This document shows, piece by piece, positions 1 to 1,139 of a stretch of 1,816 bases of DNA (within the stretch, counting starts at the first letter, position 1; each line of letters starts with the position of its first letter). The translations under genes were made by a program, and so were the position numbers. The DNA comes from Escherichia coli (GTDB taxonomy: Bacteria; Pseudomonadota; Gammaproteobacteria; Enterobacterales; Enterobacteriaceae). The DNA lies in assembly GCF_003334815.1 (NCBI RefSeq), contig NZ_QOWO01000092.1. One strand, written 5' to 3'. The notes below the pieces were generated by a model. The model saw nothing but the letters and a program-made list of their open reading frames with translations. It had not been told where the DNA came from and did not search any database.

Positions 1-140
1 TATGGTCTGGCAGGGCTGGGGATGGGTAAGGTGAAATCTATCAATCCGTACCGGCTTACGCCGGGCTTCGGCGGTTTCACACCTGTGCTACATGTAACCA
101 CCGTATGCCGCCTTACATGCGCTGACGCGCATTATTTGCC

Positions 141-169
141 TTGTTCCGTCTGAAAGTAATCACTATGAT
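141..169 (+). promoter_or_regulatory. Putative sigma70 promoter of the TA operon: -35 TTGTTC (141-146), 17-bp spacer, -10 TATGAT (164-169)
   Basis: Hexamers read directly from the sequence. The -10 matches TATAAT at 5 of 6 positions, the -35 matches TTGACA at 4 of 6, and the spacing is 17 bp. It sits 27 bp upstream of the antitoxin start. Not experimentally supported; an alternative -35 (TTGCCT, 136-141) is also possible. Confidence 0.3.
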
Positions 170-182
170 TAAATATGATTAA
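164..182 (+). repeat. Tandem direct repeat TATGATTAA-a-TATGATTAA (candidate RHH antitoxin operator)
   Basis: Two exact 9-bp copies at 164-172 and 174-182, offset by 10 bp (one helical turn). The first copy coincides with the predicted -10. RHH antitoxins typically autoregulate by binding direct or inverted repeats that overlap their own promoter. The repeat is seen directly; the operator role is inferred. Confidence 0.5.
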
Positions 183-195
183 CAACTAATCGGAT

Positions 196-860: not shown

Positions 861-1139
861 ATGAATTACGATGAAATAACGAAAATTACCGCTGAACGTA
901 TTAGCGACTACATGACTGAAGCAGTTAATACAGACTCTATTGCCGTTGCGGAAATGTTTCATAACGCTGCATGGGGAGTGCGAACATTGTGGTTTGAACT
1001 CGTCACAAAAATAGATATGGATATGCATAAAAAGAACGGGTATGCGAGTTATGATCTTAGAAGGAAAATCGAAATGCAGCATGAAGAGTTTCAGAAAATG
1101 ACAGAGCGCGAGCAAGTGCCTTTATTGAAATCGCCATAA
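861..1139 (+). CDS. Hypothetical small protein (92 aa), no family recognised
   Basis: ATG at 861 is preceded by a canonical Shine-Dalgarno AGGAG (851-855) with a 5-nt spacer. The ORF ends in three tandem in-frame stops, TAA TAA TAG (1137-1145). The translation has balanced, mildly acidic composition and looks protein-like, unlike the antisense shadow ORF. It is AT-richer (~44% GC in block 901-1000) than the TA operon. I recognise no homology from memory. Confidence 0.55.

Follow-up and report, generated by a model that had tools for sequence, protein, structure and literature searches.

Non-coding, structured replicon backbone with a candidate primase start at the left edge of an IncI1 plasmid segment

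The DNA analysed here, referred to as the window, is a stretch of 1,816 nt from Escherichia coli (assembly GCF_003334815.1, contig NZ_QOWO01000092.1). The whole window is 100% identical to many IncI1 plasmids from E. coli, Salmonella, and E. albertii. One of these plasmids, L001, matches it in a single piece, and window base 1 corresponds to L001 position 4001. The initiator gene repA (repZ) ends with its stop codon at L001 3288, which is 713 bp upstream of the window start. The interval between this gene and the window contains a DnaA box (TTATCCACA, L001 3455-3463), located 546 nt left of the window, and a Tus-type Ter site (GAATGTTGTAACTAC, L001 3826-3840), located 161-175 nt left of it. 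In a scan of L001, this Ter site was the sole match within three mismatches to the core GNRNGTTGTAAYKA, and inside the window no Ter site with up to three mismatches to the same core was found. A second Ter site at the repeat CATGTAA...TTACATG (91-119) was considered and rejected because of more than three mismatches to the Ter core, and CATGTAACC at window 91-99 does not qualify as a Ter site either. The Ter site of L001 directly follows a G+C-rich, terminator-like hairpin (L001 3782-3810, AAAAGCG...CGCTTTT), which was scored on the minus strand and is also followed by a T-run on the plus strand; hairpin and Ter site together span L001 3782-3840, 161-219 nt left of the window.

The right-hand boundary of the stretch under study is formed by a toxin-antitoxin operon with genes for a CopG-family antitoxin (196-480) and a RelE/ParE toxin (480-755). 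DNA from base 133 is common only to plasmids with the same toxin-antitoxin pair (L031, L039), and from this base onward the DNA is cargo. A promoter scan identified a sigma-70-like promoter with a -35 element CTGAAA at 150-155 and a -10 element TATGAT at 174-179. Downstream of the -35 element, two direct repeats of TATGATTAA are found at 164-172 and 174-182, spaced 10 nt, together with inverted repeats TAATCA/TGATTA within 157-181; the TATGATTAA copies overlap both these inverted repeats and the -10 element. These repeats at 157-182 are probably the operator of the ribbon-helix-helix antitoxin. The features of the left edge are compiled in Table 1.

Table 1. Features assigned to the left edge of the window, in window positions
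Feature	Position	Strand	Basis
Conserved non-coding segment behind oriV, distal end (IncI1/IncFII-type; 'repA4 / G-site region')	1..132		IncI1 identity, IncFII alignment, 32 homologues
'RepA4' pseudogene label (RefSeq/PGAP; frameshifted, partial)	1..34, stop TGA 32-34	+ (frame 2)	some IncI1 records (L002 1546-1823 ends at window base 34)
Near-invariant CAG (5'-CTG-3' on the minus strand), candidate DnaG start triplet; primer would run rightward from base 12	11..13	-	conservation; function predicted
Module of three stem-loops, 90 nt	47..135	-	covariance model; strand predicted from loop signature
Hairpin A (CCGGC-TTAC-GCCGG; minus strand CCGGCGTAAGCCGG)	51..64	-	compensatory change, GCG(N)NAGC mini-hairpin motif, single-sequence folding
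Alternative hairpin CGCCG-GGCTT-CGGCG	59..73		chosen by folding in a few homologues; no independent covariation shown
Long-range stem S2 (GGCGGTT/TGCCGCC) around a variable inner stem-loop	70-76 with 105-111 (70..111)	-	arm covariation
Terminal hairpin S4 (ATGCGC-TGAC-GCGCAT)	117..132		covariation; exact end of conserved backbone
Toxin-antitoxin operon (CopG-family antitoxin, RelE-ParE toxin): promoter and probable operator	133..195	+	promoter scan, repeats, gene annotation; operator role predicted

Between the replication origin and the cargo, the left edge of the window belongs to a block of DNA that is conserved far beyond IncI1 plasmids. Window bases 1-129 align with IncFII plasmids at about 88% identity and occupy the same place relative to repA. 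Homology to relatives stops at positions 129-132, after which the own cargo of each plasmid follows. To the left, the conserved block starts about 240 nt before the window, at the Ter site, which is thus part of the same block and outside the window; the whole block measures about 370 nt. We take this block downstream of oriV to be the repA4 region of the literature, with its Ter site and its primase-dependent 'G site', and the window holds the last third of it. The IncFII plasmid L004 has the same layout as the IncI1 plasmids, and its two inverted Ter sites, at 1932-1946 (minus strand) and 2069-2083 (plus strand), are both located between oriR and the conserved block. The IncI1 plasmid L001 retains just the plus-strand site, and the other one of the IncFII pair is absent.

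Some version of the block was found in 4184 of 5426 complete E. coli genomes, about three quarters, in replicon types that carry much antibiotic resistance. For comparative analyses, 32 non-redundant Enterobacterales replicons were aligned over window positions -125 to 140 (266 nt). The almost invariant core of the block (L001 3882-3977) lies 24-119 nt left of the window and has covarying helices of its own. From this core, a 39-mer (GTAAGCGGCCCTNACGGCCCGCTAACGCGGAGATACGCC, L001 3893-3931) that was invariant in the first alignment was used in a scan covering one genome per species; it is present without change in 34 loci of diverse Enterobacterales, including Pantoea, Erwinia, Mixta, Izhakiella, Edwardsiella, Serratia, Klebsiella, Enterobacter, and others. 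A scan of L001 3200-4300 against Rfam 15 gave two chance-level matches (E > 5), both outside the window, and no family. Transposon-sequencing papers on IncI plasmids make no mention of the left-edge stretch. In plasmid p2RM8082 (NZ_CP043828.1; L045), an otherwise identical IncI1 plasmid, a 213-bp A+T-rich insertion is found between the equivalents of L001 3858 and 3859, in the interval between the Ter site and the core. The ends of this insertion resemble imperfect inverted repeats; it is possibly a miniature transposable element and is evidently tolerated there.

The initial annotation of the window, made without flanking sequence, had noted two open frames at the left edge, and both are present in the sequence. 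Plus-strand frame 1 is open from base 1 to a TGA at 151-153, and on the minus strand a frame without stops extends from 131 to 3 and contains GTG codons in frame at 101..99 and 80..78. The former had been suggested to be the C-terminus of an upstream gene and the latter the start of a divergent gene, with the caveats that neither translation looked protein-like and that more flank was needed. These caveats were borne out, as the flank made both gene ideas fail. Plus frame 1 meets a TAA 59 nt left of the window and thus amounts to at most a 55-aa ORF (L001 3986-4153) starting 15 nt left of the window; the true upstream gene is repA (repZ), which ends 713 nt away. The TGA that ends plus frame 1 lies inside the -35-like element of the toxin-antitoxin promoter. 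The minus-strand frame becomes an 81-aa ORF (L001 4101-3856) that extends over the most conserved, non-coding core and is not kept as a frame in relatives. Stop codons immediately upstream in both frames had been proposed as the sign of non-coding DNA. Such a stop is present for the plus frame, and the non-coding conclusion is drawn from comparative evidence rather than from upstream stops in both frames.

The lengths of the two frames do not call for a coding explanation. Among 2000 shuffles of bases 1-153, a plus frame that stayed open from the edge for 50 codons or more was seen in 39%, and a minus frame reaching the edge with 43 or more open codons in 42%. Both open frames are no more than chance. 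A third candidate comes from RefSeq, where some IncI1 records carry the RepA4 pseudogene label listed in Table 1; other plasmids have a 'hypothetical protein' at this stretch, or nothing. The RepA4 label is in plus frame 2 and thus differs from the plus frame 1 of the initial annotation. None of the three ORFs (RepA4 in plus frame 2, the 55-aa plus-strand ORF, and the 81-aa minus-strand ORF) had a match in Pfam or NCBIfam. Among the 32 homologues, no frame is consistently open on either strand, and the start codon of the 55-aa ORF is absent in many of them. In relatives that are 81-89% identical to the window, indels of 1-2 nt break the frames, with shifts into stops seen at 81-88% identity, and all 168 pairwise indels inside window 1-131 are 1 or 2 nt long. 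Variable columns are distributed over the codon positions as 37/34/34, which shows neither an excess at third positions nor any codon periodicity. In sum, neither a conserved frame, nor substitutions and indels of the coding type, nor a recognisable family was found for RepA4 or any other protein-coding gene, and the RepA4-labelled stretch probably does not represent a genuine coding sequence. As for the short ORFs of the two strands, they are best explained as by-products of G+C-rich structured DNA.

This structure is visible already in the number of short inverted repeats. The perfect repeat CCGGC-TTAC-GCCGG at 51-64, which had been recognised in the initial annotation, is one of four perfect 5-bp stems within bases 1-153. 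These stems make three hairpins, at 51-64, at 59-73, which overlaps the first, and at 117-132. One or more such stems occurred in 37% of 2000 shuffles and four or more in 0.6%, and the clustering of stems is beyond chance. Further repeats, which the initial annotation did not contain, are a 7-nt inverted repeat at 91-97/113-119 and the 6-bp hairpin 117-122/127-132. The hairpins at 51-64 and 59-73 are mutually exclusive, because bases 59-64 are common to both.

The comparison of the 32 replicons indicates which of these structures are maintained. The stem of hairpin A is CCGGC/GCCGG in 28 sequences and is replaced by the compensatory pair GCGGC/GCCGC in the other 4. The loop varies on the plus strand between TTAC, TGC, TAC, TTC, and TGAC. 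In all 28 sequences of the CCGGC type, it starts with T and ends with C, which corresponds to G..A on the minus strand; this G..A loop is absent in 4 of the 32 sequences. The arms of S2 occur as GGCGCCA/TGGCGCC, GGCGACC/TGTCGCC, GGTGCCA/TGGCACC, and GGCGCTG/GAGCGCC, and the helix is 96-97% paired with 3-4 pairs altered on both sides. Similarly, the arms of S4 vary as ATGCCGC/GCGGCAT, ATGCGCC/GGCGCAT, and ATGACGC/GCGTCAT, with 92-98% pairing and 3 pairs altered on both sides. Over all helices and in two alignments, 85-86% of the cells are paired, compared with 32-50% after shifting the partners by 1-3 columns, and 8-10 pairs are altered on both sides. The covariation score of 0.128-0.143 in the two alignments was matched by 0-1 of 500 shuffles.

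Single-sequence DNA folding likewise recovers hairpin A, S2, and S4 in most of the 32 homologues. The folding energy of the single sequence is only weakly better than that of shuffles, with z = -1.7 for the minus and -1.15 for the plus strand, and the case for structure is comparative for this reason. Counts of wobbles and mismatches give no clear strand preference. RNAalifold on the raw MAFFT alignment missed S2 owing to gap placement, and the stem was recovered from arms that had been extracted without gaps. After realignment with a covariance model, hairpin A and part of S2 still contained misalignments or gaps in the IncF/IncI group, and the ungapped table of arms is the cleaner evidence.

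Taken as a unit, the three stem-loops form the 90-nt module of Table 1. A covariance model of this module (window 47-135) located it at 42 places, with 48-98 bits and in every case on the strand of the core. The module is present once per replicon and is usually located about 70 nt after the core, and its order and strand relative to the core are constant in all full replicons examined. In three plasmids about 190 nt of additional sequence lie between core and module (module at L009 1972-2063, L042 6544-6635, and L011 11298-11385), and in one Enterobacter hormaechei plasmid the module is duplicated in tandem (L021 8121-8210 and 8261-8349).

With regard to function, the key features are a single conserved triplet and the loop of hairpin A. 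The CAG at window 11-13 is present in 31 of the 32 sequences and is the sole CTG or CAG kept in at least 60% of them across the 266 aligned nucleotides. In the three plasmids with a displaced module, homology of the left block runs to about this CAG, and an insertion then follows. E. coli primase starts at the template triplet 5'-CTG-3', which is what the CAG presents on the minus strand. Other possible primase starts were rejected since none of them is conserved; these were CTG on the plus strand (GGCTGAAAG at L001 3993-3995, and GTCTGG with the triplet at window 7-9) and the CAG in CGCACAGA (L001 3972-3974). At hairpin A, the minus strand reads GCG(N)NAGC in 28 of the 32 sequences. GCG(N)NAGC is the extra-stable DNA mini-hairpin motif of hairpin I in the primase-dependent origins of the phages G4 and St-1 (PMC13037366). 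The two strand-specific signals, namely the CTG triplet and the loop of hairpin A, point to the minus strand, on which three stem-loops are followed, in 5' to 3' direction, by the CTG. The inverted repeat at 51-64 turns out to be the best-supported functional feature of the left edge.

The location of the triplet is consistent with such a role. The window CAG corresponds to L001 4011-4013, which is 556 nt from the DnaA box and about 366 nt past an origin of 188 bp counted from the box. In plasmid R1, leading-strand synthesis reportedly begins at a G site that depends on primase and lies about 400 bp downstream of oriR, and the spacing of the window CAG, about 366 nt beyond the origin, fits this distance. 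The features by which a G site would be recognised are found together, namely the location downstream of the origin, in the direction of replication and at about the reported distance, the template CTG, and the stem-loops beside the start, these last with weak thermodynamic z-scores. The putative assignment of the G site to these bases is based on their position and on the literature.

In this proposed scheme, replication would begin with the opening of oriV by RepZ/RepA, with the DnaA box 546 nt left of the window. Rightward unwinding by DnaB would leave the stretch single-stranded, and the minus strand, as the leading-strand template, could then fold into three SSB-resistant stem-loops (132-117, 111-70, and 64-51). 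These would stand 5' of the invariant 5'-CTG-3' (13-11), where DnaG may start a primer from which the leading strand would then run rightward. The Ter site at L001 3826-3840 would be oriented so as to stop the fork after one full circle. Opening, unwinding, and folding are established steps for R1/R100, and it is their mapping to these bases that we infer here.

We are highly confident that the left edge is a non-coding, cis-acting, structured part of the replicon backbone of the repA4/G-site region and holds no gene. The fuller statement, with the mapping of the priming signal included, places bases 1-132 at the far end of the block behind oriV, as non-coding backbone of an IncI1 replicon (IncFII superfamily) that acts in cis, and is considered reasonably probable. 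We lean slightly towards the narrower proposition, which equates window 11-132 with the primase priming signal and puts its start at base 12. Several observations speak against this explanation. The most conserved part of the block, the core, lies left of the window and could be the true G site. Folding energies barely beat those of shuffles, the wobble counts pick no strand, and 4 of 32 sequences do without the G..A loop. In addition, the presence of the two inverted Ter sites of IncFII plasmids between oriR and the block leaves the passage of the first helicase unexplained by the simple model.

The comparison with known systems has the same two sides. A G site in the IncFII plasmids R1 and R100 and a single-strand initiation (ssi) signal in ColIb-P9, both primase-dependent and of the G4 type, have reportedly been described. 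R100 and ColIb-P9 carry signals homologous to the R1 G site. These signals belong to the same replicon family as the window, and ColIb-P9 is of the same plasmid type (IncI1). They also share with the window the location a few hundred bp downstream of the origin, the richness in hairpins, and a CTG on the presumed leading-strand template. The region is said to be conserved between IncFII and IncI1 plasmids, as is the case for the window. The published G site may correspond to the module of the window, to the core, or to both. A second point of comparison is the repA4 region of NR1/R100, which is reported to carry Ter repeats and to be necessary in cis for stability. Like the block of the window, it is located immediately downstream of ori, carries one or more Ter sites, and is required in cis for stable inheritance, and RefSeq applies the name RepA4 to the stretch of the window. 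The differences are that the window comprises just the last third of it, that one of the two Ter sites is lost in IncI1, and that there is no comparative support for a RepA4 protein.

The origin oric of phage G4 (L003 3893-3998) has three stem-loops 5' of a template CTG, the same general plan as on the minus strand of the window, and the GCG(N)NAGC mini-hairpin is represented by CGGCGAAAGCCG in G4 and by CGGCGTAAGCCG on the window's minus strand. However, similarity in sequence does not rise above chance for either strand. The best local alignments to oric cover 9 and 12 nt and do not exceed those of shuffles, and a phage BLAST with the region gave no G4-like match. Moreover, the CTG is 37 nt away from hairpin A in the window, whereas only 3 nt separate it from hairpin I in G4, and G4 oric resides on a packaged single strand, whereas the plasmid element would act only after unwinding of the duplex by a helicase.

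The main alternative to the priming reading regards the core (L001 3882-3977) as the complete G site and the module at 47-135 as a separate cis element at the boundary. Such an element might be a second signal for single-strand initiation, a PriA-type site at which the lagging-strand primosome assembles, or a replicon-boundary structure of the fork or insulator kind. Two single-strand initiation signals were reportedly found in pSY343, a derivative of R1. The far stronger conservation of the core, with its exact 39-mer at 34 loci and covarying helices of its own, argues for this division, as does the module itself, whose displacement by about 190 nt or duplication suggests a self-contained unit and whose last hairpin is exactly where the backbone stops. 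On the other hand, the core is without a conserved CTG or CAG, the sole one being located between core and module, no sequence evidence for a PriA site was found, and the relative order and strand of core and module are constant in all full replicons examined. On balance, this division of the block is rather doubtful. It can be extended to the claim that the module at 47-135 is a distinct and previously undescribed element at the outer boundary of IncF/IncI-type replicons of the Enterobacterales, one that can be separated from the G-site core, has no Rfam entry, and has a function of its own, for which a second strand-specific signal for priming or primosome loading and a structured RNA are candidates. 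This extended claim is doubtful.

A further explanation holds that the block is transcribed, either as a non-coding RNA or as a terminator or insulator that shields oriV from transcription of the cargo, or the cargo from transcription of the replicon. The strong covariation speaks for this explanation, and the GUAA-type loops on the minus strand would also suit an RNA. In addition, the plus strand of IncI1 passes the terminator scan at 117-132, where TATTTGCCTT follows the hairpin. Yet most relatives keep this hairpin without the T-run. A scan of L001 3700-4149 revealed no promoter-like site in or upstream of the block on either strand. The terminator-like hairpin at L001 3782-3810, scored on the minus strand and also followed by a T-run on the plus strand, stands between oriV and the block, and any transcript of the minus strand would need to originate in the cargo, whose DNA varies between plasmids. 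As no Rfam family matches either, an RNA role of the block appears unlikely, and transcription of the block in any of these forms is given little weight.

The proposal that the edge encodes a protein, be it the C-terminus of RepA4 in plus frame 2, the 55-aa plus-strand ORF, or the 81-aa minus-strand ORF, has in its favour that the ORFs exist, that some RefSeq records are labelled accordingly, and that repA4 of the IncFII replicon of pEC958 tolerates no transposon insertions (PMC4398462), but it is highly improbable given the broken frames, lost starts, missing third-position excess, chance-level frame lengths, and missing protein families described above, with PGAP itself calling a frameshifted, partial pseudogene or nothing. 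A cis-acting site would explain the intolerance of insertions equally well, and this intolerance also counts as evidence for the reading as cis-acting backbone with a priming signal. The RepA4 product, moreover, is reportedly not needed.

The preferred reading as cis-acting backbone with a priming signal has consequences mainly for annotation. There is no gene to call at this edge, and the labels 'RepA4' pseudogene and 'hypothetical protein' are best read as marking a replication element that acts in cis. Elements of this kind have been known since about 1990, and knowledge of these plasmids is unchanged by the present analysis. The structural description, which leads from a Ter site through an invariant core and a CTG to a module of three hairpins whose end is exactly where the cargo begins, may be useful for defining replicon boundaries, for typing mosaic plasmids, and for experiments on the start of the leading strand.

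Some minor features were observed in the cargo downstream of the toxin-antitoxin genes. A 92-aa ORF is located on the plus strand at window 861-1139, where RefSeq has a partial hypothetical pseudogene over 861-1064, and an 89-aa ORF on the minus strand at 1334-1603 is annotated in RefSeq as an 88-aa hypothetical protein from the second ATG. Both ORFs are found in an A+T-rich stretch, unlike the G+C-rich left edge. At window 1724/1725, a 223-bp segment (L002 3514-3736) that most IncI1 plasmids have is missing, as it is in L001. As a consequence, a hypothetical protein of 164 aa is truncated; the L001 annotation gives it as frameshifted.
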